A DNA stretch of 30,597 nucleotides, from the sequence record DRR378314_578. One strand, 5' to 3'. The translations under genes and the position numbers were made by a program. How positions within the stretch are numbered: position 1 is the first letter of the stretch; the number at the start of each line of letters is the position of its first letter. Below, piece after piece: positions 12,987 through 30,519 of this stretch. Under the pieces are notes generated by a model. That model was not told where the DNA came from. It ran no database searches and saw only the letters and a program-made list of their open reading frames with translations.

Positions 12987-15900
12987 TTAATTGGTTTTGG
13001 TGAATACCAAGACCTTACCCCTATTCTGAGTTACCACAATATAAGGGTTACCGCCATTGGCCCTTTCCACTTGTACCATATCTTTTGCATCTCCGGTGAC
13101 CTTAAATCCGCTTTCCTCTGCATTTTTGAATGTAAATCCGCCATTGTTATCCCCGAGTAGAACGCCACCATTAAATGCGTCATATCTTCCGATAAAGGCT
13201 TCATTGCCGAAGTCGTTTCCAATCATCAACACATCAGTAGCGGTATTACCGGCCGCTTGGGTGGTAATCATACATTTTATGGGTGCTAATTGTGTTTGCC
13301 ATGGAAGTTGGCCCATCTTGAACTGTCCGTTTCCATCATTCTCAAAATAGGTGGTTTGATCGTGATTGGCCATTAATTCATCGGCATTTTCCAGTTCTTC
13401 GGGGGTAAAAAGACCACTTTTAGTGGTAGTGGCATACTCTCTAAAGTAATTAAACTTTTTACGGAACATAGGGCTTTGCCCCATAAGGTCTCCCCAAAAG
13501 CTGACCGGGTAGGGCTTAAAGGTGGAATCTTCAAAATCACTTTTAAAATAAGCAAACAATACCGGGTCAATTGCTCCGTTGTTGTCAAAATCCTTGGCCA
13601 ACATAGTAACGGGTCTTTCCGGTGAAGGATTGTACAGGTTGTTCTTCCCCAAATTTCCAGCAATTAGATCCACATCGCCATCGCCATCAAAATCTTTCGC
13701 GAGAACGCATTCCCACCAACCGGATAATTGCTGCATACCTGTTTGGTCCAACTGCTGAAAGGAATCTTTCTTGTTCATAAAAATGGTAACGGGCATAAAC
13801 TCGCCGACCAAAACAAGGTCCTTCAAATTATCCTGATCCAAATCGGCCCATATGGCATCGGTGATCATTCCCGGGTTTCGCAACGCTTTGCTATACATAT
13901 CGGTCACATCCACCAGTGTGCCGTTTTCGTTTTTCAACAAATAGCAATCATCTGGTTTGGGATATTGGGAAAACGGGGTGCGGCCACCAACGAAAAGATC
14001 CACAAAACCGTCACCATCAAAGTCTTCTGCTGTCACAACTGATCCACTTGAGTTTATGCTTGGCAACTCATCCATTGCCCTCACGAATTTTCCGTTGCCC
14101 TGATTGATCATCAGGTAATCTTGATAGTAGGGCGAATCCAAATCGAATTCATTACTGCCTGCAACCATATAGATATCCAGGTCCCCGTCATTTTCCAAAT
14201 CAAAAAGTGAGATACTGGTCTCTTCCCGCATTTTATTGTCTTCATCATCGAACAAGGGAGTACCGGTAAATGAACCTTTCGCGTCTTGCATAAAGATCAT
14301 TGGAGAATGACCAGAAGAGCTTCCTATGATAAAATCCTCAAATCCATCACCGTTTAAATCCCCTTTTGCAATGCGGGGACCATTTTGGGTCAGTTTGTGG
14401 GGCAAGGTAGGTTGCACATAAAAATCGGCCTTATCGGTTTCCTCGTGGACATAATTAACGCCAACCTCCTTTGATATTTCCTGATATAGGGGGTTGGATT
14501 GTTTTGGTGCCAACGGAAATGCCAATTGTTTACCATTTAAGGCTGATGCATCACCATGATTGATTTTTAATGTTTGATTCGTTGGTACATCCGTTAACTT
14601 TTGGAATTTCCCGTCCGGCCATACTATTTCGAGGGATGCAATTGATTTTTTTGGTCCCAAACCAAAATGGGCCATTCCCTCCACCGTAGATAAATAACCC
14701 CTGTTCAACTGATGTTCGTAATATTGAAAGGTACCGTCCTTAAACCGTATGGCCACCTTGGTGCCCAAAGCCGCCTGATTGTTTGTTGGCCCTTTTAAGT
14801 CCAGTTTGATAAAATTCCTGTCTTTTTGGTTCTCAACGTCCAGATTATTCTTAAAGACGAATGCCTCGTCGTTAATGTTGTTCACCACATAATCCAAATC
14901 TCCATCACCGTCCAAATCGGCAAAAGCAGCTCCGTTGGAAAAAGATGGGATGCTCAGCCCCCATTCCTCACCAACATCCTTGAACTGGCCGTTGCCTTCA
15001 TTTCGGTAGGCGTAATTTGGTATTTTCACCACTGGAATAGAGTCCAATATTTGAGATGGGGTAAGATATTTTTGAACATTAAAGTTGAATTCACCAAAAT
15101 CGAGGTCGGTAATATCCCTTGGAAAACCATTGGTGATCAAAATATCCCTGCGACCATCATTATCTGCGTCCACAAAAAGTGGTGACCAGCTCCAATCGGT
15201 TTTGGCTATTCCGGCCATAAGACCGATTTCACTGTACGGCATATCGGGACCTTGGCCCATTTGAAGCATATTACGCATATATTGATAATCGTACCCATAC
15301 TTTTCATTCATATAATAATCATTGTACTTGGTTACTTTGATGGTGGTTTTTAGCCTGTAGTTGGTTTCCCCGAGCATGTCCAAGGTAAGAATATCAAGGT
15401 AGCCATCGTTATTAAAGTCCGCTATATCGGAACCCATGGAAAATTTACTTTGATGCTTTACAAAGTCACTGATCTTATCGGTAAATGTCCCATCCCCGTT
15501 ATTGATATACATGATATCGTTGCTCAAGTAATCATTGCTCACATAAATATCGGGCCAACCATCGTAATCCAAATCGGAAATGGCCACGCCAAGGCCATAC
15601 CCCTCAATGGTAATACCCGCTTCTATGGTTACATCGGTAAAGGTATTGTCTCCATTATTTCGGTATAAACGGTCATTGCTCTTGGATGATCCATCCGTAA
15701 TTTTTTCCCTATAATTTGCAGGTAGAATATGAATGTCCACATTGTTGAGCACGTAGAGATCCAAGAGGCCATCTTTGTTATAATCTATAAAGGCGGCATT
15801 CATGCTGTTACCGGTATCGGCAACGCCATATTCTTTGGCCATCTCTTTAAAAACAGGGACACCGTCATCATCCACGCCTTGGTTTATATATAACATATTG

Positions 15901-16325
15901 GCCTTTTCTTCAGGGCTTTCGTACATAGCGGCACATATGTAGATATCCAAAAGTGAATCGTTGTTTATATCGATTACCGCTACACCAGTCTTCCATTTAT
16001 CCGTTGCTTCCACACCGGATGCTTTGGTAACATCCTTAAATTTAAAATCACCTTGATTTAGATATAGTTTATTGGTTACCTGATTCCCCGTGAAGAAAAG
16101 ATCGGGTTTATCATCGTTGTTAAAATCCCCAACGGCGACTCCTCCCCCGTTAAAAATATACTCGCTGGTAAGAATGTTGAAACTGTCGGTCTCAACGATT
16201 TTATTGTTGAAGGTAATACCGGAATGATCGGATGAAACCTTGGTGAAGAGCGTGTCCTCCTTTTTCTTGGAACAAGAAACCACCAGTAGTGAAGCTAGTG
16301 CAATTAAAATATACCTTTTAGTCAC
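12987..16325 (-). CDS. FG-GAP/VCBS repeat lipoprotein with central ASPIC/UnbV domain (CRTAC1-like)
   Basis: GTG start, lipobox VVSC. About 13 DxDxDGxxD-type repeats (e.g. GDFNNDDKPDL, ADFNNDGYLDI, ADLDGDGDLDY, GDLNGDGFEDF, KDFDGDGDVDL). ASPIC/UnbV-like segment RGYLS...AHFGLG...IVWPDG lies between the two repeat clusters. Confidence 0.88.
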   Translation of the reverse strand: MTKRYILIALASLLVVSCSKKKEDTLFTKVSSDHSGITFNNKIVETDSFNILTSEYIFNGGGVAVGDFNNDDKPDLFFTGNQVTNKLYLNQGDFKFKDVTKASGVEATDKWKTGVAVIDINNDSLLDIYICAAMYESPEEKANMLYINQGVDDDGVPVFKEMAKEYGVADTGNSMNAAFIDYNKDGLLDLYVLNNVDIHILPANYREKITDGSSKSNDRLYRNNGDNTFTDVTIEAGITIEGYGLGVAISDLDYDGWPDIYVSNDYLSNDIMYINNGDGTFTDKISDFVKHQSKFSMGSDIADFNNDGYLDILTLDMLGETNYRLKTTIKVTKYNDYYMNEKYGYDYQYMRNMLQMGQGPDMPYSEIGLMAGIAKTDWSWSPLFVDADNDGRRDILITNGFPRDITDLDFGEFNFNVQKYLTPSQILDSIPVVKIPNYAYRNEGNGQFKDVGEEWGLSIPSFSNGAAFADLDGDGDLDYVVNNINDEAFVFKNNLDVENQKDRNFIKLDLKGPTNNQAALGTKVAIRFKDGTFQYYEHQLNRGYLSTVEGMAHFGLGPKKSIASLEIVWPDGKFQKLTDVPTNQTLKINHGDASALNGKQLAFPLAPKQSNPLYQEISKEVGVNYVHEETDKADFYVQPTLPHKLTQNGPRIAKGDLNGDGFEDFIIGSSSGHSPMIFMQDAKGSFTGTPLFDDEDNKMREETSISLFDLENDGDLDIYMVAGSNEFDLDSPYYQDYLMINQGNGKFVRAMDELPSINSSGSVVTAEDFDGDGFVDLFVGGRTPFSQYPKPDDCYLLKNENGTLVDVTDMYSKALRNPGMITDAIWADLDQDNLKDLVLVGEFMPVTIFMNKKDSFQQLDQTGMQQLSGWWECVLAKDFDGDGDVDLIAGNLGKNNLYNPSPERPVTMLAKDFDNNGAIDPVLFAYFKSDFEDSTFKPYPVSFWGDLMGQSPMFRKKFNYFREYATTTKSGLFTPEELENADELMANHDQTTYFENDGNGQFKMGQLPWQTQLAPIKCMITTQAAGNTATDVLMIGNDFGNEAFIGRYDAFNGGVLLGDNNGGFTFKNAEESGFKVTGDAKDMVQVERANGGNPYIVVTQNRGKVLVFTKTN

Positions 16326-16549: not shown

Positions 16550-16583
16550 AAATAGGTTGCCAAAATGAATTGACAACCTATTT
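16550..16583 (-). terminator. Intrinsic terminator downstream of susD
   Basis: Inverted repeat AAATAGGTTGCCAA / TTGACAACCTATTT (14 bp). Its single mismatch is a G-U pair on the minus-strand RNA. It has a 6-nt loop, runs into a U-rich tail on the minus strand and lies about 40 nt after the susD stop. Confidence 0.8.
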
Positions 16584-16623
16584 ACTTGAATTAAATTAAA
16601 CTAACTCAGACTACTCATTATTA

Positions 16624-18327
16624 TTAGTACCCTGGATTCTGTGTCAACACTCCACCGCTCTGGTCGATTGCGTTCACAGGAATCGGGAATAAATCATGTC
16701 TTGGTTCATAGGACCTAAATTTGGTTCCATAACTAGCTTGATCAAAATCATCTGCTTCATTCTGGATATAGGTATTGATGGTTTGCTGAGCATTGCCCCA
16801 TCTTCTCAAATCGAACAATCTATGTCCTTCCATACCAAATTCCAAACGACGCTCAAAACGGATAGCTTGTCGTGCAAAATCCTGACTTGCAAAAGAAGCA
16901 TAAGGCTCAATTTGATAGTTGGCAGCATCTCCAGTTCCATCCACAGTTTGAACATAGTTCATATTTTTGGCCCTGTTTCGTACACGATTTACATATTCCA
17001 ATGCCAAAGGTAAATTTGGACTGGATTGTTCAACAGCAGCTTCAGCAGCCATCAACAATACATCTGCAAAACGCATTACGTTATAGTTGATACCGGACCA
17101 GTCCGATCCCCAACCACCTGTACCGCGTTGGGCATCCACCTCGTCCGCTTGATAAAAATTCTTTTTAGGCAAATAAGGTCCTGAAATATCACCAAAGGTT
17201 GCTCTAATCCACTCTTTTCCTGGGTTTAGACCAAAACCATTATAATCAATACCTCTTCGACCAATGGTATAATCAATACGTGGATCCAATGGTCCTGTAT
17301 GAGGGGTAAAAGGTTCATCACTATTGATTCCATAATCATTGGTTACATCAGTTGCAGCGTAGGAATCCAATAATGGCAATCCGGAACCGTCTGTCTGATA
17401 AGCATTGGCCAAATCTTGTGTTGGCTGATAAAACCCGCAGCAAGTACCCAATGGACCACCCCCTGGGAAGTTCAACGTACCTGTACCATTACCATTAAAA
17501 GAGCGTCCATCATCAGCAGCGAACTGAATGGCAAACATAGATTCAGGACCGTTTTCACCAGCAAGGTTAAAGTTGTCCACGAATTGCTCATTTAAAGAAT
17601 ATGGTCCATTATTGATCACATCGTTGAGCAATGGCAAGGCTTGGTCATATTTTCCTTGGTACAAATAAACTTTGCCCAAAAAGGCTTTTGCCACCCAAGC
17701 ATTGGCTCTACCTACGATAATATCGTCGCCCAGCGCATCAGCAGCAGCTTGAAAATCAGCTTCAATCTCTGCCCATATTGGACCTGGGTTTGGTTGATTG
17801 AACTCTGTATTCACTAAATTCTCCACAGAAAGAAAGGGTGGATTACCATAATGTTTCTGAAGCTCAAAATTGTAATAACCTCTAAGGAATAATGCTTCTC
17901 CTTCTTGTTGGGTAAAGTCCCCTTCCTCAATTTGACTGATCAGGTCCAATACGGCATTACAGCGATTTACACCAGCATAAAGTCCGCTCCATCTTCCCAG
18001 GAACCAACTGTTACCAGTTTGCCAGTCCAAGGTTTCTATCTGGAATAGTTCCGTGTTATCTCCATCGGTACTTCCCCTGTGGGCATCATCCGATACCACA
18101 TCCGTCCACCAGTTGTCTCCGCCACGAGAAACAGCTTCTCCCTGCGCATTAATACGTTCTCCGTCCATAGCGGAATAAGCCGCGGTCAACTTTAGGTCAA
18201 CGCCCAAAGCATTTTGAAGCGCTGCATCCGAGAGCGCACCAGTGGCCGGCTTTTCCGTGAAATCTTCACTACAGGCCCATAGCAATAGACCTGCCAGCAT
18301 TGTTGTAAATAATAACTTCTTTTTCAT
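16624..18327 (-). CDS. susD: RagB/SusD family outer-membrane nutrient-binding lipoprotein
   Basis: Lipobox LWAC. SusD motifs GEALFLRGYYNF, AKAFLGKVYL, MRFADVLLMAAEA, ERRLEFGMEGHRLFDLRRWG, terminal QNPGY. Lies 4 nt downstream of susC. Confidence 0.95.
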   Translation of the reverse strand: MKKKLLFTTMLAGLLLWACSEDFTEKPATGALSDAALQNALGVDLKLTAAYSAMDGERINAQGEAVSRGGDNWWTDVVSDDAHRGSTDGDNTELFQIETLDWQTGNSWFLGRWSGLYAGVNRCNAVLDLISQIEEGDFTQQEGEALFLRGYYNFELQKHYGNPPFLSVENLVNTEFNQPNPGPIWAEIEADFQAAADALGDDIIVGRANAWVAKAFLGKVYLYQGKYDQALPLLNDVINNGPYSLNEQFVDNFNLAGENGPESMFAIQFAADDGRSFNGNGTGTLNFPGGGPLGTCCGFYQPTQDLANAYQTDGSGLPLLDSYAATDVTNDYGINSDEPFTPHTGPLDPRIDYTIGRRGIDYNGFGLNPGKEWIRATFGDISGPYLPKKNFYQADEVDAQRGTGGWGSDWSGINYNVMRFADVLLMAAEAAVEQSSPNLPLALEYVNRVRNRAKNMNYVQTVDGTGDAANYQIEPYASFASQDFARQAIRFERRLEFGMEGHRLFDLRRWGNAQQTINTYIQNEADDFDQASYGTKFRSYEPRHDLFPIPVNAIDQSGGVLTQNPGY

Positions 18328-18331
18328 TTTT

Positions 18332-21300
18332 TTAAAATTTTAGATTAACTCCGAAAGAATAAATTGCAGCTAAAGGATAGTTGTTATCCGCAACACCAAT
18401 GGTCAAGTTGTCAATGGCACCACCTTCAAATCTAGGTTGTAGCTCAGGGTCAACTCCATCATAACCTGTTATGGTGAACAAGTTGGTACCTTGCAGGTAG
18501 AAGCGAACACTATTCATTCCTAAATAACTGGAAACTTGCTCATTAAAAGTATAACCAATTTGAAGGTTTTTCAATCTCATATAAGATCCATCTTCCACAA
18601 AGAAGGAGTTTGCATTACCTTCATTGTTGGATATACTCTGGCTCAACGCCGGCAATTCGGCATCTAGGTTATCTGGAGTCCAAGAATCCAAAACCCTTAC
18701 ACTTCTGTTTGCATTGAAGAATGTTGGGAAGTCAGTATAAACTTTATCGTTATTGAATATTTCGTTCCCTTGCGACCCTTGGAAAAACGCAGACATATCA
18801 AAACCTTTATAGGCAGCTGTCAAGTTAATACCATAAGTGAAATCTGGGTGAGGCGATCCGATGAAAGTTCTATCGTCATCATTGATCACACCGTCATCGT
18901 TCAAATCAGCATATCTGAACCTTCCAACACCATCGGCAGGAGTTGCAAACCCTTGGTCTGCAGCTGCCGTAACTTCTGCTTCCGAAGCAAAAATACCGTC
19001 AACTACTCTACCGTAGAATGATGAAAGCGGTTGCCCCTCTTGTGTTCTTGTAACAGTACCCGTGGTTCTAAACCCTCCGAAACCTGTTTGGAAGGCACTG
19101 ATCAAATCCACCACTTCGTTTTTGTAATGGGAGACGTTAAGGTCAATACCATAGCTAAAGCCAGAGTTCGTTTGATCTCTATAGCTTAAAGTAGCATCCA
19201 CACCTGTGTTCTCAATGGAACCAAGATTCACGAACGGTGGAGCTGCATCAATAGCTGTTGAACTGAACAATTGTTCATCCTGGTTGATCAAATCCTTTGT
19301 CTTGATTTTAAAATATTCTGCAGAAACATTCAATTTGTTGTCAAAGAAGCCAAGTTCAACACCGAAGTTGGTGGTTTCACTGGTTTCCCATCTCAAATTA
19401 GGGTTACCCGCAGCAGACAATAATGCACCTTGTGATGGGCCTCCGTTACCTGTGTAAACATAATTTGCATATTGCTCGCTCAATACAGAAATATTGATGG
19501 TTGGGTTGTTCACCGGAAGTGTCTGGTTACCCAATTGTCCCCAAGAACCTTTCAACTTCAATCGGCTCACGAAAGAGTCTGTTGGCCAAAAGGATTCGTT
19601 GCTCACTACCCAACCAGCACTGAAAGATGGGAAGGTATCACTCTTATTGTCTCCCAAAAATCGAGAGGATTCATCACGACGTACGGTAGCAGTCAACAAG
19701 TAACGACCATCATAGTCATAATTTACCGTTCCGAACAAAGAGAACAAAGAATTTGCATTGTCATAGGCGTAAGCCACGTTTGGTGCACCACCACCATTGC
19801 TCAACAAATAATAGTCAGGTGTTTCGAAAAAATAGTCGTTTCTAGTAATTTCCTTTCCTTTTGCCTGATTATCCAAAGCCTCAATACCAATTAGAGCATT
19901 AATCTTGTGATCTCCGAAAGACTTGTTATAGTTTAAGGTGTTTGTCCATACCCACTCGTAGTTGTCTTGATCGGCCTCTCTCAATGTATTTGTGGCAATA
20001 GGCTCAGATGATTCTGGAATCAACGCCCTAAAACGTCTGTCGTTGTAAGCTCTAATGGAACCACCGAAGGATGTTTTGAACTGCAATCCATCCATAATGT
20101 CCAATGTAGCATAAATATCACCGAATACCCTGAGTGTCTTGGCATAGTCATCTTTTTGACGAGTAGCTTCCGCCACAGGGTTGTTAGGGTTGGATAGTCC
20201 TGTATCGTTACTGTAGTTACCACCAAAGTTCCCATCAGTATCATAAACTGGCACCAAAGGAGACATTCTTTGTGCAAAATTGAACCATGACTGCCCACCA
20301 GCTCTTCTATCGAAAGAAATGTTGGCGTGTTGCCCGATACGAATTCTATCACCGATTTTAAACTCTGAGTTCAATCGTACCGTCCCTCTTTTAAATCCTG
20401 TATGGATTTGAACACCCTGACGGTTTAAGTAGTTAGCAGAGAAGAGAAATCTTGATTTTTCATTACCATTTTCCAAAGTAATGGAAGCGTTTTGCGTAAT
20501 GGCACTTCTGTAGATTTCATCCACCCAATCGGTACCACCTGGTCTAACATTCATAGTTACAGGAACACCTTGAATAGTGGAAGGAACAACCGGACTTGCA
20601 CCGTCACCATATTGTGGGTGCGAAGGCGTTCCACCATCATTCAGGATACTTTGCCAAAGCATTTCTCCATGTTGCTGTGGGTTTAGCATATCTGGCTTAT
20701 TCGTTACTACGGAGAATCCTGTAAGCAAATCAACCGAAACTTTTGCGGTGTTAAGGTTATAACCACCTCCTTTAGTGGTTATAATGACAACACCATTGGA
20801 TGCCCTTGCACCATAAATAGCGGCAGCACCATCTTTAAGTACGTTAAATTGCTCGATATCCGCTGGGTTAATTGAGTTTAAGATACCTGGGTCATCGGTC
20901 TGAACGCCATCAATAATATAGAGAGGGTCGTTACTATTACCTGTACCAAAACCCCTAATACGAACTACTGGAGCTGAACCAGGAGCACCGTTATTGGTAA
21001 CTGTAACACCTGCCACCCTACCTTGTAAGGCTTCTGCGGCGTTTACAACAGGAGTTTTTGTGGCTTCCTCAACATCAACTGTTGCCACAGATCCTGTTAA
21101 TTCCCCTCTTGTTTGTGTACCATAACCTGTTACCACCACCTCATCCAAGGCTGCGGCATCTTCTTCCATGGTTACATCAATTGTAGTATTACCGTCCACT
21201 GGAATTTCAATGGTCTTAAATCCTACGTAAGAAAAAATCAAAGTAGCATCCGAAGCTGCCGTAATGGAGTAATTTCCATCAAAATCCGTCTGCGTACCGT

Positions 21301-21532
21301 TGGTAGTACCCTTTACAATAACATTTGTTCCGGGTAGTGGAGTTCCAAAGTTATCCACAACGGTTCCCGTAATGGTAATTTGGTAAGGAGGTGAAGTAGC
21401 TTCATCCAAGTCTGGGGCCGCTGCCATTGCAGATCCACCCACCAGCATCATTGTCATTGACAAAAAGAGAGCCTGAAAAGCTTTAAAGCAATCAGACAAT
21501 CTTGTCAAAACTTTAAATCTGTTTTGATTCAT
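18332..21532 (-). CDS. susC: SusC/RagA family TonB-dependent transporter
   Basis: N-terminal extension (GTQTDFDGNYSI), LDEVVVTGYG, plug motifs PLYIIDG and VLKDGAAAIYGARASNGVVIITTK, NPNLRWET, C-terminal Phe (GVNLKF). Confidence 0.96.
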   Translation of the reverse strand: MNQNRFKVLTRLSDCFKAFQALFLSMTMMLVGGSAMAAAPDLDEATSPPYQITITGTVVDNFGTPLPGTNVIVKGTTNGTQTDFDGNYSITAASDATLIFSYVGFKTIEIPVDGNTTIDVTMEEDAAALDEVVVTGYGTQTRGELTGSVATVDVEEATKTPVVNAAEALQGRVAGVTVTNNGAPGSAPVVRIRGFGTGNSNDPLYIIDGVQTDDPGILNSINPADIEQFNVLKDGAAAIYGARASNGVVIITTKGGGYNLNTAKVSVDLLTGFSVVTNKPDMLNPQQHGEMLWQSILNDGGTPSHPQYGDGASPVVPSTIQGVPVTMNVRPGGTDWVDEIYRSAITQNASITLENGNEKSRFLFSANYLNRQGVQIHTGFKRGTVRLNSEFKIGDRIRIGQHANISFDRRAGGQSWFNFAQRMSPLVPVYDTDGNFGGNYSNDTGLSNPNNPVAEATRQKDDYAKTLRVFGDIYATLDIMDGLQFKTSFGGSIRAYNDRRFRALIPESSEPIATNTLREADQDNYEWVWTNTLNYNKSFGDHKINALIGIEALDNQAKGKEITRNDYFFETPDYYLLSNGGGAPNVAYAYDNANSLFSLFGTVNYDYDGRYLLTATVRRDESSRFLGDNKSDTFPSFSAGWVVSNESFWPTDSFVSRLKLKGSWGQLGNQTLPVNNPTINISVLSEQYANYVYTGNGGPSQGALLSAAGNPNLRWETSETTNFGVELGFFDNKLNVSAEYFKIKTKDLINQDEQLFSSTAIDAAPPFVNLGSIENTGVDATLSYRDQTNSGFSYGIDLNVSHYKNEVVDLISAFQTGFGGFRTTGTVTRTQEGQPLSSFYGRVVDGIFASEAEVTAAADQGFATPADGVGRFRYADLNDDGVINDDDRTFIGSPHPDFTYGINLTAAYKGFDMSAFFQGSQGNEIFNNDKVYTDFPTFFNANRSVRVLDSWTPDNLDAELPALSQSISNNEGNANSFFVEDGSYMRLKNLQIGYTFNEQVSSYLGMNSVRFYLQGTNLFTITGYDGVDPELQPRFEGGAIDNLTIGVADNNYPLAAIYSFGVNLKF

Positions 21533-22031: not shown

Positions 22032-22052
22032 ATTGTATCAAAATGATACAAT
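22032..22052. promoter_or_regulatory. Perfect 21-bp palindrome, candidate NrtR-family operator
   Basis: ATTGTATCA-AAA-TGATACAAT has perfect 9-bp arms and a 3-nt centre, 59 nt upstream of the NrtR-family gene. The loop is too short and AT-rich for a terminator. Confidence 0.7.
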
Positions 22053-22111: not shown

Positions 22112-22837
22112 ATGTTACCAATCGAAAAAGACCATATAACCAACCTTGCCTATGATACCGTAATCCTAGGTTTTACAGGTAAAGAATTGAAGATTTTGAT
22201 ACTGGAATATCAAAATTCCGGTCAGTTTGCATTGCCTGGAGGATTTATTCGGCGCGATGAAGATTTGTACGATGCGGTTAAAAGAGGAGTGCGGGAAAGA
22301 ACGGGTTTAGAAAAAATCCATTTGGAACAATTTCACACCTTTGGAAAAAAAAACAGAGACAGTTCCTACCCCTTTAAAAAGATTGCTGCCGGAAAAGGGT
22401 ACACCTTAACATCCGATCATTGGGTCCTTGATAGATTCATCACTGTAGGATATTATGCGCTGATCAATTACAACCAAGTGCAACCTACCCCGGATAAATT
22501 TTCGGATTCAATCAATTGGTACGACATTAACAAGCTCCCAAAGTTAATGATAGACCACGCGGAAATTGTTGACAAAGCATTGGAATCCATCCAGCATGAT
22601 CTGGGCAAGAAACCTATAGGGGAAAATCTGTTGCCCGAAAAATTTACGATGAAAGAACTACAAAAGGTCTACGAAATTATTTTAAACAAAGAATTTCGTC
22701 GTACTACATTTCAACGTAAAATGTTAGGCATGGATATTTTAAAACGGCACGAAAAACTATATACTGGAGCCGCAAACAAGGCACCCTATCTGTACAGTTT
22801 CAACACAAAAAAGATGGAAAAGGCTGAAAAGCCATGA
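22112..22837 (+). CDS. NrtR-family transcriptional regulator (degenerate NUDIX domain + winged helix)
   Basis: ALPGGFI...ERTGL NUDIX-like box, LEQFHTFG, RFITVGYYAL, DHAEIV. C-terminal wHTH LLPEKFTMKELQKVYEIIL...TFQRKM...APYLYSF. Confidence 0.9.
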   Translation: MLPIEKDHITNLAYDTVILGFTGKELKILILEYQNSGQFALPGGFIRRDEDLYDAVKRGVRERTGLEKIHLEQFHTFGKKNRDSSYPFKKIAAGKGYTLTSDHWVLDRFITVGYYALINYNQVQPTPDKFSDSINWYDINKLPKLMIDHAEIVDKALESIQHDLGKKPIGENLLPEKFTMKELQKVYEIILNKEFRRTTFQRKMLGMDILKRHEKLYTGAANKAPYLYSFNTKKMEKAEKP

Positions 22838-22905: not shown

Positions 22906-24612
22906 ATGCCAAATTTCAATATTGATGCCGACCCTAAACACACCTACGATGCCATAGTAATCGGCTCGGGAATCAGCGGTGGTTGGGCAGCTAAAGAGCT
23001 CTGCGAGAAAGGATTGAAGACCCTTGTTTTAGAACGGGGGCCTGTCGTGGAACATCCAAAAGATTACACTACCGCCAATCTAGACCCTTGGGATATGGAG
23101 CTTCGGGGAGGATTAACTCCTGAACAACAAAAAAAACACTATAAAGGCATACGGTCAGGTTTTATAGGCCAAGACACCGAACATTTTTATGCTAACGACG
23201 AGGAAAATCCATATACCGAGGTTAAACCATTCCTTTGGATACGGGGACACCAAATGGGCGGTCGTTCGCTCTTGTGGGGCAAACAGACCTACCGTTGGAG
23301 CGAAATGGACTTTGAAGCTAATGCCAAGGATGGACATGGAGTGGATTGGCCCATCCGTTATAAAGATTTGGAGCCTTGGTATACTTATGTAGAAAAGTTT
23401 GCAGGTATCAGTGGCGAAGCCCTTGGACTGCCACAGCTTCCCGATAGTCACTTTCTACCTCCCATGGAGTTGAACTGTGTGGAAAAACATATCAAAGAAC
23501 GTATAGAACGGGACTTCCCCGGAAGACACATGATCATAGGGCGGGTAGCGCATTTGACCCAACCACTTAATGGTAGGGGACAATGCCAATACCGCAACCG
23601 ATGTAGCCGGGGATGTCCGTATGGCGCCTACTTTAGCAGTAATGCCGTAACCTTGCCAGCAGCCAATGCAACCGGGAATCTTACTTTTAGACCTTACTCC
23701 ATTGTGCAGTCCATTATGTATGATGAAGGAACAGGCAAGGCATCCGGTGTTCGCATTATTGATGCCGAGACCAATGAGGACATTGAATTCAAGGCCAAAA
23801 TTGTTTTCTGCAACGCCTCTACCTTGAGTACCACCCAAATACTATTGAATTCCACCTCCAACCGCTTCCCGGATGGAATGGGCAACGACAGTGGTGAATT
23901 GGGCCATAACTTAATGGATCATACCTACCGTGTGGGGGCACTGGGTAAGGTAGATGGTTATGATGACAAATACTACAGTGGCCGCAGGCCCAACGGAATT
24001 TATATCCCCCGTTATTGGAATATTGACGAAAAATCCAAAACCGACAAGTTCCTCCGTGGTTTTGGTTATCAGGGAGGTGGTTATCGCATGGGAAATAGTG
24101 AAGCGGCCAATCGTAAAGAATTCGGTGGCGATTACAAGGATAGTATCATGAAACCTGGGCCATGGGAATTCTTCATTACAGGTTTTGCCGAATGTTTGCC
24201 CTATCATGATAATAAAGTGTACCTCAACAAGGAGGTGACGGATAAATGGGGACAACCTACTTTGTCCATAGATTGTGAGTACAAGGAAAATGAATTGGCC
24301 CAGAACAAACAGATTCAAGAAGATGCGGTGGAAATGCTCGAAAAAGCTGGGGTAAATGATGTTCTTGGGTTTGATAACGAGCACGAACCGGGGTATGGGG
24401 TTCACGAAATGGGAACCGCACGTATGGGCCGCGACCCAAAAACCTCAGTTTTGAACGGAACCAATCAAGTGCATGCTGTCAAAAATGTATTTGTGACAGA
24501 TGGTGCCTGTATGACTTCCAACTCTTGTGTAAATCCATCACTTACCTATATGGCGCTTACTGCAAGGGCTGCCGATCATGCCGTGAAAGAACTCAAAAAA
24601 ATGAACCTTTAA
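22906..24612 (+). CDS. GMC-family FAD oxidoreductase (glycoside 3-dehydrogenase / gluconate 2-dehydrogenase large-subunit type)
   Basis: DAIVIGSGISGGWAAKEL Rossmann motif, GGRSLLWG, Cys cluster CQYRNRCSRGCP, LGHNLMDH, active-site HEMGTARMG, DGACM...NPSLTYMAL. No signal peptide. Confidence 0.92.
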   Translation: MPNFNIDADPKHTYDAIVIGSGISGGWAAKELCEKGLKTLVLERGPVVEHPKDYTTANLDPWDMELRGGLTPEQQKKHYKGIRSGFIGQDTEHFYANDEENPYTEVKPFLWIRGHQMGGRSLLWGKQTYRWSEMDFEANAKDGHGVDWPIRYKDLEPWYTYVEKFAGISGEALGLPQLPDSHFLPPMELNCVEKHIKERIERDFPGRHMIIGRVAHLTQPLNGRGQCQYRNRCSRGCPYGAYFSSNAVTLPAANATGNLTFRPYSIVQSIMYDEGTGKASGVRIIDAETNEDIEFKAKIVFCNASTLSTTQILLNSTSNRFPDGMGNDSGELGHNLMDHTYRVGALGKVDGYDDKYYSGRRPNGIYIPRYWNIDEKSKTDKFLRGFGYQGGGYRMGNSEAANRKEFGGDYKDSIMKPGPWEFFITGFAECLPYHDNKVYLNKEVTDKWGQPTLSIDCEYKENELAQNKQIQEDAVEMLEKAGVNDVLGFDNEHEPGYGVHEMGTARMGRDPKTSVLNGTNQVHAVKNVFVTDGACMTSNSCVNPSLTYMALTARAADHAVKELKKMNL

Positions 24613-24616: not shown

Positions 24617-25210
24617 ATGGATCGCAGAAAAGCTTTAAAATTTACAGGAAGTATGGCCGCAGCTGCCGTTGCCGGCCCTTCATTGTTATCCCTGCTTCAG
24701 TCTTGCAAAAATGAAGCACGTGTAGATTGGCAACCACAATTTTTGACGATGGATGAGGCTGCCTTCGTGTCCAAAATAGTGGATATGATTTTACCACGTA
24801 CCGAAACACCGGGAGCTTTGGACGTCAAAGTCGATATTTTTATCGATAAGGTCTATGCCAAATTGTATGATGCCAATGGTCAAAACCATGTTAGAAAAGA
24901 AATAGAAAAATTCAATTCCGATTGTATATCCGATTTTGGCGACAGCTTTGTCAACCTTTCCGAATCCGACCAAATCAAAGTCTTGGAAAAGGCAGAACAA
25001 AACTCGGGACAATTTGGAAGCGGGGTTTGGGGAACCACAGTAGGAAACCCAGAACCAGTAGGCTTCTATCGGTCCTTAAAATCAACCATTTTATGGGGCT
25101 ATTTTACCTCCGAGGAAATCGGTGAAAATGTACTTAACTATGACCCTGTTCCAGGAGCATATCACGGTTGTATACCGTTGGCAGAGGTGGGCAATAAATG
25201 GAGCCTTTAA
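24617..25210 (+). CDS. Gluconate 2-dehydrogenase subunit 3 family (Tat-exported small subunit)
   Basis: Twin-arginine leader MDRRKALK with possible lipobox LQSC. ILPRTETPGA, GYFTSEEIG and YDPVPGAYHGC match the family. Lies 4 nt after the GMC gene. Confidence 0.9.
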   Translation: MDRRKALKFTGSMAAAAVAGPSLLSLLQSCKNEARVDWQPQFLTMDEAAFVSKIVDMILPRTETPGALDVKVDIFIDKVYAKLYDANGQNHVRKEIEKFNSDCISDFGDSFVNLSESDQIKVLEKAEQNSGQFGSGVWGTTVGNPEPVGFYRSLKSTILWGYFTSEEIGENVLNYDPVPGAYHGCIPLAEVGNKWSL

Positions 25211-25213
25211 CCT

Positions 25214-26584
25214 ATGCAAAACAGGTCTTTTTATATCAACCGAAGAAAATTCCTGACTGGCTCGGCCGCTACTTTGGCCCTATCGTCATTTGGCGCCTAT
25301 GGCATGGATTTGATGTACTCATCAAAAAAGTGGAATGTAGGACTAATAGGTTGTGGTTGGTACGGCGTAAGTGATTTGTTCAAACTGATTCAAGTAGCCA
25401 ATATCGAAGTGGTCTCACTCTGTGATGTGGACAAAAAACATCTGGAAGAAGCTGCACATTTGGTGTCCCAGCGACAAAAATCCCGTAAAAAGCCACGATT
25501 GTACAGCGATTATCGCAAAATGCTTGCCGAAAAGGATTTGGATATCGTTTTGATTGGTTCACCGGACCATTGGCATGCGCTACAAGCCATAGAAGCCATG
25601 GAATCTGGTGCACATCTTTATTTACAAAAACCCATTAGCCTTGATATTTTGGAAGGCGAAGCCATTTTGGCCACTGCCCGAAGATTGGGCAAAAAAGTGC
25701 AAGTAGGCACCCAACGTAGAAGTACGCCGCACTTGATCGAAGGCAAGAAAAACATTATAGATGCTGGACTACTGGGAAAAATATCCCATGTGGAAATGTG
25801 CTGTTACTACCACATGCGTTGGAATGCCAATCCGCCAGTACAGCAAGTTCCCGATCACTTTGATTACGATTTTTGGTCCGGTCCTGCTCCGTTGAGGCCC
25901 TATATTGGTTTGCCACATAAAAAGTGGAGAGCCTTTACGGAATACGGAAATGGTATTGTGGGCGATATGTGCGTCCATATGCTGGATGCCGTTCGGTGGA
26001 TGCTCGGCCTCGGATGGCCCAAAAAAATATCTTCCACAGGTGGGATTTACGTCCAAAAAGATTCCATAGCCAATACTTCGGATACACAGACTGCCATTTT
26101 TGAGTTTGATGAACTCAATTGCGTATGGCAGCATCGTAGTTGGGGCAATCCGACGGATCCAGATTACCCTTGGGCATTTTTTATTTATGGCGAAAAAGGA
26201 ACTTTTAAGGGAAGTGTATTTCAATATGAGTTCATTCCCCATGATAGTGGTAAAACCATAAAAAAAGAAGCGATTTACGAGCGTGAAAAATATCCAGAGG
26301 ATTTAAAGGAAAAGGATATCGAGCTCCATACAGCACCAGCTACACGAGGCCACATGTTGGATTTGTTGGATGCCATCGAAAGTGATAGATTTCCTGTGGC
26401 CGATGTAGAGCAGGGCCATATTTCCACAGCCAGTTGTATCCTGGCCAACCTTGCCATGGGATTGGAACGCCCATTGGTTTATAATCCACAAAAAAGGATT
26501 ATTGTTGATGATACCGAAGCCTCCTCATTGCTTAAGCACAAGTATCGAGAACCTTGGCAACATCCTTCGGAAACCATTTTATGA
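25214..26584 (+). CDS. Gfo/Idh/MocA family NAD(P)-dependent oxidoreductase, Tat-exported
   Basis: Tat motif NRRKFL, GLIGCGWYG, SPDHWHA, YLQKP, VQVGTQRRS, WSGPAP, GDMCVHMLD. Confidence 0.92.
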   Translation: MQNRSFYINRRKFLTGSAATLALSSFGAYGMDLMYSSKKWNVGLIGCGWYGVSDLFKLIQVANIEVVSLCDVDKKHLEEAAHLVSQRQKSRKKPRLYSDYRKMLAEKDLDIVLIGSPDHWHALQAIEAMESGAHLYLQKPISLDILEGEAILATARRLGKKVQVGTQRRSTPHLIEGKKNIIDAGLLGKISHVEMCCYYHMRWNANPPVQQVPDHFDYDFWSGPAPLRPYIGLPHKKWRAFTEYGNGIVGDMCVHMLDAVRWMLGLGWPKKISSTGGIYVQKDSIANTSDTQTAIFEFDELNCVWQHRSWGNPTDPDYPWAFFIYGEKGTFKGSVFQYEFIPHDSGKTIKKEAIYEREKYPEDLKEKDIELHTAPATRGHMLDLLDAIESDRFPVADVEQGHISTASCILANLAMGLERPLVYNPQKRIIVDDTEASSLLKHKYREPWQHPSETIL

Positions 26585-26634
26585 CCATAAAAAACCCACT
26601 ATCAACATAAAAATTGATAGCCATCAGAACCAAA

Positions 26635-28125
26635 ATGACAAAATTCAACCTTTTATTGCCACTTCTATTCATGTCTTTTTCCGTTATGGCGCAACAAGAC
26701 CATAAACGAACCATTGTTACCACCGATGGTGAAATAGACGATGTGGACACCTTTATTCGTTTTTTGATGTACACCAACGAATTTGATACCGAAGGATTGA
26801 TCTATTCCAGTTCCATGTGGCATTGGAAGGGTGATGGCAAGGGAACCACCATGGTCTCCGAAATGGAAATGACCCGAAATATGTATGGGGAACGCAGCGA
26901 ATTGAGATGGCCAGGAACCACTTGGATACAGGAACTGTTGGCCGAATATGCCAAAGTACATTCCAACCTATTGCTTCATGATAAAAACTACCCTACCCCA
27001 AAAGAGCTTTTGGTGCTGGTAAAAGTGGGCAACATAGATTTTGAGGGGGAAATGGACCAACGCACCGAAGGTTCAAAATGGATAGCAAAAAAATTGCTGG
27101 ATGATGACCCGCGCGAAATTTTTCTTCAGGCCTGGGGCGGAACCAATACCATTGCCCGTGCCCTAAAATCAATCGAAGAAGACTATTCCAGCCATAAAGA
27201 TTGGGAAACAATCAAAGAAAAAGTATCAAAAAAGGCCATCATCTACACCATCATGGACCAAGATGCCACCTACAAAAAATACATAGGGCCCAATTGGCCC
27301 AATATAAGGGTCTTTTACAATGCCAACCAATTTTGGTGCTTTGCCTACCCATGGAAACAAGTGGTTCCCAAGAGCCAGCAACCCTATTTAGAGGGGAGTT
27401 TTATGGGCCCCAACATCATAAATGATCATGGACCGTTGTTTACAAAATATTATTCCTACGGGGATGGGCAAAAACAAGAAGGAGATCCTAATCATTTTGA
27501 GGGAGATATTTCAAAAATTGCACATACCGATCGCGGCAATTTTTCCAAATACGATTTCATCTCAGAAGGAGATTCCCCTGCGTTTTTACATTTGGTGGAT
27601 GTGGGTCTGGACAACTACGAAGACCCGTCCCGAGGGGGTTGGAGCGGTCGTTTTGAGCAATCGACCGAAAATCCATACCGTTTTGAAGACGGTGAAGCCG
27701 CGGCCGATCTAAATCCTGAAACCGGAGAAATGGACAAAAGCTATCCCCAGACCCGTTGGATAAAACCTATGCAACTCGATTTTGCTGCCCGTGCCGATTG
27801 GTGCATCAAACCTTTTGAAGAAGCCAACCATCCTCCACAGATTTCTGTATCGCAAGGGAATTCGATTAATGCAAAACCAGGAGAAAAGGTTGTTCTCAAT
27901 CTTTCTGCTGAAGATATTGACGAACACCCTGTCTTTTTTAACGTTTGGCCCTATGCGGAAGCTGGTGATGGGGCTGCAACCGTTGAATTAAAAATTGATG
28001 TGGCATCGGTCAAAATTCCAAAGACAGCCAAAAATGGGGAACAATACCATATCATTGTTGAAGGTACCGATACTGGCTTTCCTGCTTTGACCAGGTACCA
28101 ACGTGTGATAATAGAAATCAAGTAA
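26635..28125 (+). CDS. Exported DUF1593 / nucleoside-hydrolase-like domain protein with C-terminal Ig-like domain
   Basis: Signal peptide from ATG 26635 ending VMA-Q. RTIVTTDGEIDD, YTNEFDTEGLIYSSS, QAWGGTNT, EGDSPAFL, GGWSGRF, DFAARADW, ANHPP and LTRYQRVII are typical of DUF1593 proteins. Confidence 0.82.
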   Translation: MTKFNLLLPLLFMSFSVMAQQDHKRTIVTTDGEIDDVDTFIRFLMYTNEFDTEGLIYSSSMWHWKGDGKGTTMVSEMEMTRNMYGERSELRWPGTTWIQELLAEYAKVHSNLLLHDKNYPTPKELLVLVKVGNIDFEGEMDQRTEGSKWIAKKLLDDDPREIFLQAWGGTNTIARALKSIEEDYSSHKDWETIKEKVSKKAIIYTIMDQDATYKKYIGPNWPNIRVFYNANQFWCFAYPWKQVVPKSQQPYLEGSFMGPNIINDHGPLFTKYYSYGDGQKQEGDPNHFEGDISKIAHTDRGNFSKYDFISEGDSPAFLHLVDVGLDNYEDPSRGGWSGRFEQSTENPYRFEDGEAAADLNPETGEMDKSYPQTRWIKPMQLDFAARADWCIKPFEEANHPPQISVSQGNSINAKPGEKVVLNLSAEDIDEHPVFFNVWPYAEAGDGAATVELKIDVASVKIPKTAKNGEQYHIIVEGTDTGFPALTRYQRVIIEIK

Positions 28126-28206
28126 GATATCATGCTCTTTCTAATATCAATTAGCTTGATTACCTTTAAATAATCCGATTGAGCACAATAAAAACTAACT
28201 AACGAT

Positions 28207-30519
28207 ATGCATACAATAAAACAAAATCTCCGATGGAGCAGTCTGTTCTTAGCAACATTATTTATAGGCTGTAGCCCAAAATTTACCGAAGAAAAAAAGG
28301 AAGGTTTCAACCTTGTACATCATGAAAATGGAGCAACCCTTGGGTACAGCCCAGGTTCCGAAGTATCCATTTTAACTGTTGACCGTTTGGCCTTTAAGGA
28401 CCTGAACCAAAACGGTACTTTAGACCCTTATGAGGATTGGAGGCTCCCTGCCGATGAAAGAGCCCATGATCTTGCCTCAAAAATGAGTGTGGAGCAAATT
28501 GCCGGTTTAATGCTTTATAGTGCACACCAATCCATTCCTGGAGGAGGCAATAGTTTTTTCGGAGCTGTCACCTACAATGGAAAACCATATGATGAAAGCG
28601 GAGCCAAACCAAGTGATCTATCCGATGCACAAAAGAAATTTCTTTTAGAGGACAACCTACGCCATGTTTTGATTACCAGTGTGGAGTCGCCGGGAATATC
28701 GGCACAATGGAACAACAATGCACAGGCTATGGTAGAAGGAATTGGATTGGGCATCCCCATCAACACCAGTTCGGACCCTAGACACGGAAGCGATTCTTAT
28801 GCAGAATTTAATGCAGGTGCAGGAGGGAAAATCTCAATGTGGCCAAGTACCTTGGGATTGGCGGCTAGTTTTGACCCATCACTAATGCAACAATTTGGGA
28901 AAATTGCTTCCAAAGAATACCGTGCTTTAGGAATTGCCACTGCCCTATCTCCACAAATAGATTTGGCTACAGAGCCGCGTTGGTCCCGTTTTGACGGCAC
29001 TATGGGAGAAGACCCAAAACTTGCCGCCGACATGGCCCGAGCATATGTTGAAGGCTTCCAAGCTTCAGAAAATGGCGATTGGGGCAACCAAAGTGTAAAC
29101 GCCATGGTAAAGCACTGGCCTGGAGGTGGCCCCGAAGAAGGTGGTCGTGATGGTCATTTTGGATATGGATCCTATGCCGTTTATCCTGGCAAAAACCTAG
29201 AGGATCATTTAAAGCCTTTTACCGAAGGGGCCTTTGATTTGGAAGGTCCAACCGAAATGGCCACTGCCGTAATGCCCTATTATACCATTTCATACAATCA
29301 GGACACGGAGAATGGCGAAAATGTGGGCAATGCCTACAATAAATACTTGATTACAGACCTGCTACGTGGCAAATACGGTTACGATGGTGTGGTGTGCACA
29401 GATTGGGGCATTACAGGGGATGCGCCGAATGTATATGAATTTAGGGGCAAGCCTTGGGGTGTTGAAAATTTAAGCGTGGCCGAAAGACATTATAAAATTA
29501 TTGAAGCGGGCTGCGACCAATTTGGAGGCAACAACGATATGGGACCTGTTATCGAAGCCTATCAAATGGGCGTAGAGGAACATGGAGAGGAATACATGCG
29601 CAAACGTTTTGAAACTTCTGCAGTGCGCCTTTTGAAAAATATATTCAGGACAGGGTTGTTTGAAAATCCGTATTTGGATGTATCAGAAACAGAACAAATC
29701 GTCGGTAATGCCGTGTTTATGGAAGCGGGCTACAAGGCACAGCTCAAATCCGTAGTGATGCTGAAGAACAGTTCGGAAACCTTGCCAGTTAAAGCCAAGA
29801 AAAAAGTTTACGTACCCCAGCGCTATGTTGCCCCTACCGTTAACTGGTTTGGCGTTGCGACCAAAGAACGCACAGAGCATCCATTTAATATGGAAGTAGT
29901 GGCCAAGTATTTTGAAGTTGTGGATGAACCTAGTGAGGCTGATTTTGCACTCGTAGGCATACAAAGTCCAAATGGTGGTGTTGGATACGACGTTGCCGAT
30001 ACGGAAAAAGGAGGCAATGGCTATGTGCCCATTAGCTTGCAGTATGGCACCTATACGGCAACCAATGCCCGGGATGAAAGCTTAGCTGCTGGAAGCCCTC
30101 TAGAAGATGGTATAACAAATCGCTCTTACAAAGGCAAAACAACAACCGCTGTCAATATTTCGGATATGGGCTTGGTTACGGATACCAAAAGAAAAATGGG
30201 AAATAAACCCGTTGTTGTAATTATTAAAGTATCCAAACCTATGGTTTTCGCTGAGATTGAGCCTTCAGCCGATGCTATTTTGGTACATATGGGGGTTCAA
30301 GATCAAGCATTAATGGATATTGTCTCCGGCAAGGTGGAACCCTCTGCCATGTTACCATTCCAAATGCCAAACGATATGATGACTGTTGAATCTCAATTTG
30401 AGGATGTCCCAAGGGACATGGAACCCTACACGGACTCCAATGGCAATGCGTACGATTTTGCTTTCGGGCTCAATTGGAATGGTGTAATTAATGATTCAAG
30501 AACGCAAGCTTATAAATAG
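28207..30519 (+). CDS. Glycoside hydrolase family 3 (beta-glucosidase/xylosidase), predicted lipoprotein
   Basis: Lipobox FIGC. FKDLNQNGTLDPYEDWRL, SSDPRH, PQIDLATEPRWSR, KHWPG, MPYY, nucleophile in VCTDWG, SVVMLKN, C-terminal FAFGL. Confidence 0.93.
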   Translation: MHTIKQNLRWSSLFLATLFIGCSPKFTEEKKEGFNLVHHENGATLGYSPGSEVSILTVDRLAFKDLNQNGTLDPYEDWRLPADERAHDLASKMSVEQIAGLMLYSAHQSIPGGGNSFFGAVTYNGKPYDESGAKPSDLSDAQKKFLLEDNLRHVLITSVESPGISAQWNNNAQAMVEGIGLGIPINTSSDPRHGSDSYAEFNAGAGGKISMWPSTLGLAASFDPSLMQQFGKIASKEYRALGIATALSPQIDLATEPRWSRFDGTMGEDPKLAADMARAYVEGFQASENGDWGNQSVNAMVKHWPGGGPEEGGRDGHFGYGSYAVYPGKNLEDHLKPFTEGAFDLEGPTEMATAVMPYYTISYNQDTENGENVGNAYNKYLITDLLRGKYGYDGVVCTDWGITGDAPNVYEFRGKPWGVENLSVAERHYKIIEAGCDQFGGNNDMGPVIEAYQMGVEEHGEEYMRKRFETSAVRLLKNIFRTGLFENPYLDVSETEQIVGNAVFMEAGYKAQLKSVVMLKNSSETLPVKAKKKVYVPQRYVAPTVNWFGVATKERTEHPFNMEVVAKYFEVVDEPSEADFALVGIQSPNGGVGYDVADTEKGGNGYVPISLQYGTYTATNARDESLAAGSPLEDGITNRSYKGKTTTAVNISDMGLVTDTKRKMGNKPVVVIIKVSKPMVFAEIEPSADAILVHMGVQDQALMDIVSGKVEPSAMLPFQMPNDMMTVESQFEDVPRDMEPYTDSNGNAYDFAFGLNWNGVINDSRTQAYK

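Follow-up and report, generated by a model that had tools for sequence, protein, structure and literature searches.

A predicted NrtR regulon joining SusCD, a 3-keto-glycoside-type redox module, a DUF1593 protein and a GH3 in flavobacterial DNA, with a possible uncapping role for DUF1593

The window analysed here, the whole 30,597-nucleotide stretch of record DRR378314_578, carried at positions 12987 to 30519 a divergent locus of nine genes in which an importer of the SusC/SusD (SusCD) type, sugar-oxidizing enzymes, a glycosidase and an orphan DUF1593 protein would be controlled by one sugar-type repressor of the NrtR family; the host would be a marine flavobacterium. The locus may be a mosaic regulon that serves to take up small decorated beta-glycosides and strip them, with the DUF1593 protein as an accessory uncapping enzyme and not a lyase, a reading for and against which the chances appear evenly balanced. 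Plant natural-product glycosides or capped oligosaccharides would be the most likely substrates. The locus was regarded as a mosaic because SusCD pairs of this kind often serve 3-keto clusters, the GMC dehydrogenase pair is free-standing, and NrtR, esterases, GH3 and DUF1593 make up a module of their own.

A first-pass annotation of the same DNA had listed nine genes by strand, with a divergent spacer of 579 bp; open reading frame calls and family profiles bore out all of this, and support was found for its view of the locus as an exo-acting system for small glycosides. The adjacency of a susC-susD pair, carbohydrate-active genes and a regulator corresponded to the gene content of a SusCD-type polysaccharide utilization locus. 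A block from SusC or SusD through DUF1593 was found again in 15 of the 80 DUF1593-orthologue loci compared (the best 80 of 112; 58 of at least 15 kb and 22 under 15 kb), and given this recurrence the arrangement is not due to chance. Named relatives nearest to the window DUF1593 protein (96-98%) were Flagellimonas/Muricauda records, and the nearest genome (G001; 96-97% identical across the locus) stood in for that of the window.

Candidate operators and their repressor

The spacer carried two copies of a 21-bp palindrome, one ahead of each arm, a new element that had been overlooked in the first-pass annotation. Candidate NrtR operator 1 (ATTGTCTCAATCAGGAACAAT; 21580..21600, strand not assigned) lay 47 bp before the susC start, and candidate NrtR operator 2 (ATTGTATCAAAATGATACAAT; 22032..22052, strand not assigned), a perfect 9-3-9 palindrome, lay 59 bp before the nrtR start. 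The pattern ATTGT[AC]TCA-N7-ACAAT gave 3 strand matches in the window vs 0.03 expected, and preceded 26 of the 29 orthologous nrtR entries scanned, several of them duplicates or close kin; one of the 3 remaining entries (L119) had the operator just within the called start. Exact matches were confined to NrtR loci in all five genomes searched, and operator 1 was kept before susC in orthologous loci. That both arms are preceded by a predicted operator, and that orthologues keep it, argued for the single NrtR-controlled unit proposed earlier. The conserved sites are in support of co-regulation of the two arms, and the repressor is predicted to sit on both palindromes and to be let go by a sugar.

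The repressor (22112..22837, (+) strand) joined a Nudix domain (PF00293, NUDIX) to a winged helix (PF21906, NrtR_WHD), as in the NrtR family, and the Nudix catalytic glutamates were missing. Its best match in the PDB was AraR (5BS6, E 7e-36). Arg82 and His149 aligned with AraR Arg86 and His131, and AraR Arg34 was not retained; NrtR probably responds to another sugar than AraR, because only two of the three AraR sugar-binding residues were kept. AraR (BT0354) and XylR (BT0791) of Bacteroidetes are likewise inactive Nudix proteins with a winged helix, and likewise have 21-bp palindromes before their own operon and a divergent one (PMC4666351, PMC2330246; publications are cited here from the accessible parts of their text). 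Unlike AraR, the window NrtR had no Arg34 loop and about 22 extra residues, and its operators kept the 21-bp NrtR symmetry with a GT-N11-AC core instead of the GT-N7-AC of the NrtR family, whose sites vary between lineages (PMC2330246). The predicted targets also differed (esterases, GH3, redox module and SusCD vs ara or xyl genes). With Arg34 absent from the protein and ara genes absent from the locus, NrtR did not qualify as an AraR orthologue, and its phylogenetic tree was poorly resolved.

The NrtR family originated in NAD regulation and DUF1593 has a nucleoside-hydrolase fold, and both would suit an ADP-ribose-sensing NrtR that runs nucleoside or N-glycoside scavenging with DUF1593 as an N-ribohydrolase. 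Such a system is scarcely credible here: NrtR was closest to sugar-sensing AraR, no NAD or nucleoside genes were found among the recurrent neighbour families scanned, and G001 had a separate PF01156 protein. Moreover, the accessible literature reports the solved DUF1593 homologue Sde_0182 as inactive on purine and pyrimidine nucleosides, which also disfavoured the nucleoside-like substrate suggested earlier.

Paralogous NrtR proteins with a near-identical operator lay next to or divergent from a carboxylesterase (L171:2205-3014, L243:6209-6946, L364:3239-4062, L366:2966-3822). The paralogue was 56% identical in G001 and was inserted within the orthologous locus in G370, and cross-regulation is possible. 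Xylose, considered as the NrtR effector from the position of the G001 paralogue, was dropped, as the paralogue of G296 and G370 was not beside xylose genes. In G001, an operator-like site lay 98 bp before a gene for a 1129-residue fusion of ThuA, glucose/sorbosone dehydrogenase and PKD (contig C20; L172:10848-14355); the same 21-mer recurred in G303, and the ThuA-dehydrogenase gene is likely a distant regulon member.

Redox module, distant lyases and importer

The GMC large subunit (22906..24612, (+) strand; family profile), a putative glycoside 3-dehydrogenase dependent on flavin adenine dinucleotide (FAD), had no obvious signal of its own. The small, hitch-hiker subunit (24617..25210, (+) strand; Gluconate_2-dh3, PF13618) had a twin-arginine motif (RRKAL at residue 3) and LQSC, and the Gfo/Idh/MocA oxidoreductase (Gfo; 25214..26584, (+) strand), distantly BT2158/AL3-like, had RRKFL at residue 10. 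Twin-arginine and lipobox-like motifs were read directly from the sequence. The GMC protein contained a three-cysteine motif (C227, C233, C237), presumably with an Fe-S role; its best PDB matches were FAD glucose and fructose dehydrogenases, and a wider homologue search returned generic names only. The best PDB matches of Gfo were 8TDF and 8TDH (E 5e-27); we take the 8TC and 8TD entries to come from the AL-enzyme study of 3-keto-glycosides. Gfo kept the Gln/Trp/Asp/His positions of AL3 (Q167, W203, D251, H255), which supports the prediction of a 3-keto-glycoside-type redox module made earlier. The families, twin-arginine motifs and AL3-type residues of a putative exported glycoside 3-dehydrogenase were present, with Gfo under the cut-off of NF058561, the BT2158 family (147 bits; cut-off 750).

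The 3-keto systems compared were BT2156-BT2160 of B. thetaiotaomicron and AL1-5 of Alistipes (bioRxiv 10.1101/2024.03.25.586180; PMC8121099), the Agrobacterium GlycDH-OGE-HYD-Gfo operon (PMC10628242) and Caulobacter LacABC. Like them, the window would encode a periplasmic, exo-acting system for small glycosides, with an FAD dehydrogenase and its twin-arginine subunit and a twin-arginine Gfo with AL3-type Asp/His. Unlike them, the locus was without a TIM lyase, DUF1080 and cytochrome c, with the lyase families elsewhere in relatives, and its redox genes were joined to SusCD, GH3 and DUF1593 beneath an NrtR operator; the score of Gfo, far below the BT2158 cut-off, was a further difference.

Profile scans of the 21 window proteins gave no DUF1080 (PF06439), no AP_endonuc_2 (PF01261) and no GH family besides GH3, which bore out that GH3 is the sole recognizable glycoside hydrolase and that DUF1080 and TIM-barrel genes are missing locally. 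A TIM lyase was absent from the window and from the 4 kb beyond its edge on a metagenome contig 98.8% identical to it; that contig and the continuation in G001 carried no lyase. DUF1080 was absent from the window and from 15/15 redox-linked DUF1593 loci. A lyase just past the window edge was rejected: what follows in G001 and on contig L261 is a cNMP-binding protein, TerC, Rrf2, cytochrome c and fasciclin. The locus falls outside the 3-keto operons, although it would work like one, because both lyases sit outside the cluster.

Lyase-family genes, which may account for cleavage, were present elsewhere in G001 and its congeners. This is one of two outcomes seen here that the first-pass annotation had itself named as speaking against its reading of DUF1593, the other being the lack of co-conservation between DUF1593 and the redox genes. 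G001 had 11 DUF1080 and 9 AP_endonuc_2 matches above cut-off, among them those of a second full cluster, in which two DUF1080 and two TIM barrels accompany GMC, its subunit, Gfo and transporters. Some 40 kb away from the locus, a TIM-barrel gene (C18:118011-118874) encoded a protein with a signal-like N-terminus. Its best PDB matches were 8TCD, 8TCS, 8TCT and 8BVK, an O-glycoside eliminase, and it had the His/Asp/Trp/Glu residues described for AL1, a 3-keto-beta-glucoside lyase; it was 68% identical to the TIM barrel directly after the orthologous nrtR in other genera, e.g. Poritiphilus. The TIM lyase occurred in 22 of the 23 genomes of the G001 genus with this Gfo vs 24 of 68 others (91 genomes, in which kin are not independent), and the sole Gfo-bearing congener without it had a genome 88% complete. 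G379 alone had a single-mismatch operator site, some 100 bp ahead of its TIM gene, which was not counted as support for an operator at distant lyase genes.

The importer occupied the (-) strand. SusC (18332..21532) was a TonB-dependent transporter (TIGR04056, 885 bits, above cut-off), SusD (16624..18327; PF07980, PF14322) had a lipobox-like LWAC, and the FG-GAP/ASPIC-UnbV repeat protein (12987..16325; PF13517, PF07593) had a lipobox-like Cys18. The SusCD-FG-GAP unit was widespread, with the FG-GAP gene after susD in most orthologous loci. SusD of at least 50% identity occurred in 41 genomes outside the genus, and in the regions of the 15 top-ranked on long contigs a different GMC and subunit lay nearby in 9/15, a TIM barrel in 5/15 and DUF1593 in 0/15; the hydrolases beside these SusCD orthologues differed (GH26, GH27, GH130, GH1, GH20, or GH65/GH13). 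A 14-bp hairpin found by repeat search (16550..16583, (-) strand) about 40 bp past the susD stop, ahead of the FG-GAP gene, may be a possible terminator or mRNA-stabilizing stem; scans of the window for sigma-70 promoters and terminators gave chance levels only, and this hairpin was not called as a terminator. One congener (G368, L242) had susC-nrtR-Gfo without the GMC pair, and four (L239-L241, L244) had Gfo alone at an unrelated site.

The small subunit adjoined GMC orthologues (74-85% identity) in 18/18 other genera, and in the DNA fetched around these pairs DUF1593 occurred in 0/18, DUF1080 in 0/18 and a TIM barrel in 1/18. The absence of a neighbouring lyase is thus normal for this GMC clade and no hint of a hidden lyase, which corrects an annotation trap. 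The DUF1080 and TIM-barrel counts would also fit a GMC pair and Gfo acting as periplasmic dehydrogenases that oxidize released sugars, for respiration or for aldonate or keto-sugar catabolism, with all cleavage hydrolytic (GH3, DUF1593, esterases). Such a role would agree with the glucose and fructose dehydrogenases being the best solved GMC relatives and with the further G001 operator-like site before the ThuA and glucose/sorbosone dehydrogenase fusion. It is nevertheless unlikely: Gfo was closest to 8TDF/8TDH and retained the AL3 Asp/His pair, orthologous SusCD loci elsewhere had GMC plus subunit and TIM barrels in the proportions given above, and the TIM lyase went with this Gfo in all but one of the 23 congeners.

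Fold, residues and genomic company of DUF1593

The DUF1593 protein (26635..28125, (+) strand) was predicted to be an exported Sde182 nucleoside-hydrolase-like protein (PF07632, 234 bits) with a C-terminal Ig-like domain (PF21027, 55 bits), a family that we take to be the former DUF1593. Its open reading frame is extendable upstream to a TTG at 26614, and residues were numbered from the ATG at 26635. Its structure model (predicted local distance difference test 93) matched 2YHG (Z 39.8, root-mean-square deviation 2.4 A over 379 residues, 30% identity), which together with the profile cut-offs placed it in the Sde182 family, and matched nucleoside hydrolases (Z 16-18, about 3 A over about 240 residues), as expected of the nucleoside-hydrolase fold. 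The structure-match rows shown held no DUF1080 or TIM lyase, an absence that is not exclusion. The PF01156 match and the fingerprint of the N-ribohydrolases were absent, DxDxxxDD reading TxDxxxDD in 37/37 orthologues; profile comparison with 7 PF01156 proteins (HH probability 91) aligned the N-terminal third only and did not cover the downstream Ca2+ ligand. An assignment to the GH140 apiosidases failed, since PF13204 was not among the window proteins, and an apiosidase of the DUF1593 type would be a separate family.

D31, D35, D36 and D313 were invariant in 53/53 aligned DUF1593 sequences and E311 was present in 51/53. The residue preceding D313 was an invariant Gly, at a position where nucleoside hydrolases have His or Trp. 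Apiofuranose bears a cis-diol, as does ribose, and DUF1593 might on this residue pattern be an inverting O-furanosidase with E311 as the acid. Nucleoside hydrolases hold the ribose cis-diol via Ca2+ on such aspartates, and Sde_0182 keeps Ca2+ (PMC8910321). The window protein shared with the C-terminal region of Sde_0182 (Saccharophagus degradans, 2YHG) the two-domain fold, the N-terminal aspartate cluster, WGG and EGD[ST]P. Unlike Sde_0182, it was a stand-alone exported protein without carbohydrate-binding modules, had an aspartate loop two residues shorter, and lay in a regulated glycoside locus.

DUF1593 could instead be a non-catalytic periplasmic furanose-binding protein, with the rest of the regulon unchanged. 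A review proposes the nucleoside-inactive Sde_0182 as a furanose-interacting module (PMC8910321, accessible text), and the Thr in place of the first Asp of DxDxxxDD and the Gly before D313 would agree with a binding role. This alternative seems unlikely. The conserved Asp and Glu residues are probably more carboxylates than binding requires, nucleosides were the only substrates reported as tried on Sde_0182, and the apiose-type operons that contain DUF1593 already own a dedicated binding protein.

Redox-linked DUF1593 loci numbered 15/80 (13 Flagellimonas-type records, one Sediminicola, one unclassified). Their 15 copies formed one branch (support 99; FastTree, midpoint root for drawing only), and the branch of the window protein was nested among apiose- and esterase-linked orthologues of 74-79% identity. 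Of the 23 congeners with this Gfo, 13 had DUF1593 directly after it; the regions of 9 of the 10 others were examined. Four congeners (G296, G317, G370, G347) kept NrtR-GMC-subunit-Gfo without DUF1593, and in these four a BLAST comparison with TIM and DUF1080 reference sequences found no lyase in the DUF1593 slot. The slot after Gfo was variable, with DUF1593, CitMHS-AtuA-esterase and GH3 gained or lost; G001 had CitMHS-AtuA-esterase between DUF1593 and GH3, and the window did not.

These distributions made it very improbable that DUF1593 is an unrecognized lyase or hydratase which substitutes for DUF1080 or the TIM barrel and so completes the 3-keto route, as the first-pass annotation had suggested. 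The proposal could draw on the position directly after Gfo in those 13 congeners, on the metal/carboxylate site, and on the absence of TIM barrels and DUF1080 within 10 kb in 15/15 redox-linked loci. This last count spoke for the first-pass reading. Co-conservation with the redox genes did not hold, since DUF1593 was missing in the four congener loci and in 18/18 other genera, and the redox block was missing from 65/80 orthologue loci, the link having arisen on one branch. With genuine lyase families in trans and a nucleoside-hydrolase-like fold, DUF1593 as the missing cleavage step was unsupported.

In 15 other loci of the 80, DUF1593 lay in an operon with DeoR, a fucose-isomerase-like protein, split transketolase, a sugar ABC transporter, DUF2291 and an FGGY kinase. 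The ABC, DUF2291, FGGY and split-transketolase make-up is that of the E. coli SE15 apiose route (ECSF_RS02670-02715), and transketolase A of the Bacteroidota operon was 44-50% identical to that of SE15. The SE15 cluster was named an apiose cluster, and carrying strains grew on apiose (bioRxiv 10.1101/2025.09.14.675865). A DUF1593 homologue occurred in 8 of 9 genomes with DUF2291 vs 34 of 301 overall. Unlike in SE15, the window had no apiose-type operon, and none of its marker genes turned up in the tested congeners. In 10 more loci DUF1593 accompanied this NrtR clade, carboxylesterases and, variously, a TIM barrel, GH3, GH78 and CitMHS-AtuA, and distant DUF1593 paralogues accompanied GH140, pectate lyases and pectin methylesterase. 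A literature search, with most subscription journals outside its reach, gave no paper on the name DUF1593 and none linking the family to apiose.

We tentatively propose, with the greater weight still on the other side, that DUF1593 founds a new glycosidase family of Ca2+-dependent O-furanosidases of nucleoside-hydrolase fold (exo-beta-D-apiofuranosidases). The protein would derive from apiose operons, from which a hitherto undescribed NrtR regulon acquired it in this lineage, and would uncap apiosylated plant glycosides for GH3 and the 3-keto route, with the apiose left to other microbes. The congeners tested had none of the apiose catabolic genes searched for, and the role of DUF1593 here would therefore be uncapping and not feeding on apiose; some Flavobacterium strains are reported, in the accessible literature, to release apiose without using it. 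Were DUF1593 an apiofuranosidase, the nucleoside-hydrolase fold would gain O-glycosidase chemistry and 2YHG, without an assigned function since 2011, would receive one.

Loci L056-L059 and L061, which resembled apiogalacturonan loci, combined several DUF1593 paralogues with GH140, pectate lyases and pectin methylesterase, and L057 also had an apiose-type operon. Two tandem DUF1593 paralogues of G001 (contig C10; L174:9693-12105), 25-30% identical, adjoined an integrase fragment and the gene of an AraC regulator; no sugar genes were seen in the surroundings. A unit of CitMHS, AtuA, an AtuA-ferredoxin-like protein and an esterase, absent from the window, was repeatedly found with this NrtR clade and carboxylesterases (L009:7882-11876 in G001, L047, L050, L071, L238, L243, L364). 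AtuA is presumably a lyase for acids such as 3-hydroxy-3-methylglutarate, and the unit may import and cleave a di- or tricarboxylic acyl group of that kind set free from acylated glycosides.

Proposed route, substrate and neighbouring genes

SusC/SusD and the FG-GAP lipoprotein would, from knowledge of their families, import the glycoside. The Ca2+/aspartate site of DUF1593 could then remove a terminal cis-diol furanose, likeliest beta-D-apiofuranose, and bare glucose or glucuronate, a step whose probability we place a little under even; in several relatives, esterases and CitMHS-AtuA in the same slot would remove and consume an acyl group. GH3 would hydrolyse the bared beta-glycoside. Glycosides resistant to GH3 would be oxidized at C3 by GMC with its subunit and/or by the twin-arginine-exported Gfo; exported lyases/hydratases of the TIM-barrel and DUF1080 types, encoded elsewhere, would cleave them, and Gfo would reduce the 3-keto sugar back. 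The uncapping step would lie upstream of cleavage and would go back to a single recruitment in this lineage. Uncapping would be useful, since the 3-keto route is reported, in accessible text, to be strictly exo-acting and to be stopped by a sugar at O6. If the route holds, marine flavobacteria would attack plant glycosides by a combination of uncapping, hydrolysis and oxidative elimination. The locus makes a compact testable unit, in which a repressor and its defined candidate operator go with a transporter and an orphan enzyme of nameable likely substrate class.

Several observations weigh against the uncapping regulon and its apiose link. The locus had no cytochrome c subunit, the TIM lyase gene had no operator in G001 and a weak operator site in 1/5 congeners, and the lyases placed in trans are known from the genomes of relatives, not from that of the window. 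The closest SusCD outside the genus (80%) adjoined GH65/GH13, which points to alpha-glucosides. The binding protein of the Bacteroidota operon was only 29-36% identical to that of E. coli and had its nearest match in a Thermotoga protein that was deposited as ribose-binding, and the operon is termed apiose-type by its make-up and moderate identity. In 65/80 DUF1593 loci no apiose-type operon was seen in the available DNA, which was under 15 kb in 22 loci. Searches found no DUF2291 in G001 and, in five congeners, neither the fucose-isomerase-C family nor GH140 (0/5 each). Sde_0182 is described as catalytically inactive and only furanose-binding (PMC8910321, accessible text).

The GH3 lipoprotein (28207..30519, (+) strand) was of the SN243 type, with nucleophile D399 and an Asp315/His317 dyad; it matched 9UL7 (E 9e-98) and SN243 (7QE1, E 1e-62). 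The SN243-type dyad motif is described in bioRxiv 10.1101/2022.04.25.489410. KHxPGGGPxxxGxDxH, the Asp/His dyad and the Asp nucleophile were common to the window GH3, the beta-glucuronidase SN243 and the beta-glucosidase 9UL7. The window GH3 had a lipobox-like start and was closer to 9UL7 than to SN243, an alignment that does not reveal sugar specificity.

A hemicellulose or storage oligosaccharide (fragments of acetylated glucuronoxylan, beta-mannan or alpha-glucan), and not natural-product glycosides, would suit GH67 in 5/80 DUF1593 loci, SASA esterases in some, the GH26, GH27, GH130, GH1 or GH65/GH13 beside SusCD orthologues, and the xylose and glucuronate genes bordering the paralogous NrtR in G001. 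Such a substrate is quite unlikely: the locus had no endo-enzyme, the paralogous NrtR of G296 and G370 adjoined carboxylesterase-CitMHS-AtuA and not xylose genes, and rhamnosidases (GH78/GH106) went with related TIM and esterase modules. Congeners also had a separate SusCD locus (L250-L255) with GH106, GH78-like rhamnosidases, carboxylesterases, GH3 and a TIM-lyase paralogue, in which no dehydrogenase was seen; it is a candidate rhamnoside-glycoside locus that would use the 3-keto route.

Upstream of the locus, a block of DUF4159, AI-2E, THUMP-like, esterase and M15 peptidase genes (309-5693; cf. L194-L227) marked a conserved chromosomal site. The cargo of this site is remodelled between genera: in other Flavobacteriaceae it comprised GH130, sulfatases, GMC-subunit-TIM and SusCD along with a Gfo orthologue. 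An operon-like run (6421-12966) encoded a D-amino-acid-transaminase-like protein, an N-acyl-D-amino-acid deacylase-like amidohydrolase, an M20 peptidase and two serine beta-lactamase-fold proteins; it lay near a D-Ala-D-Ala dipeptidase (4234-4959) and possibly serves recycling of D-amino-acid peptides. At the other end of the window (30530-30597), the last 50-65 bases matched a short element at more than 15 places in G001, probably a repeat like the repetitive extragenic palindromic (REP) elements.

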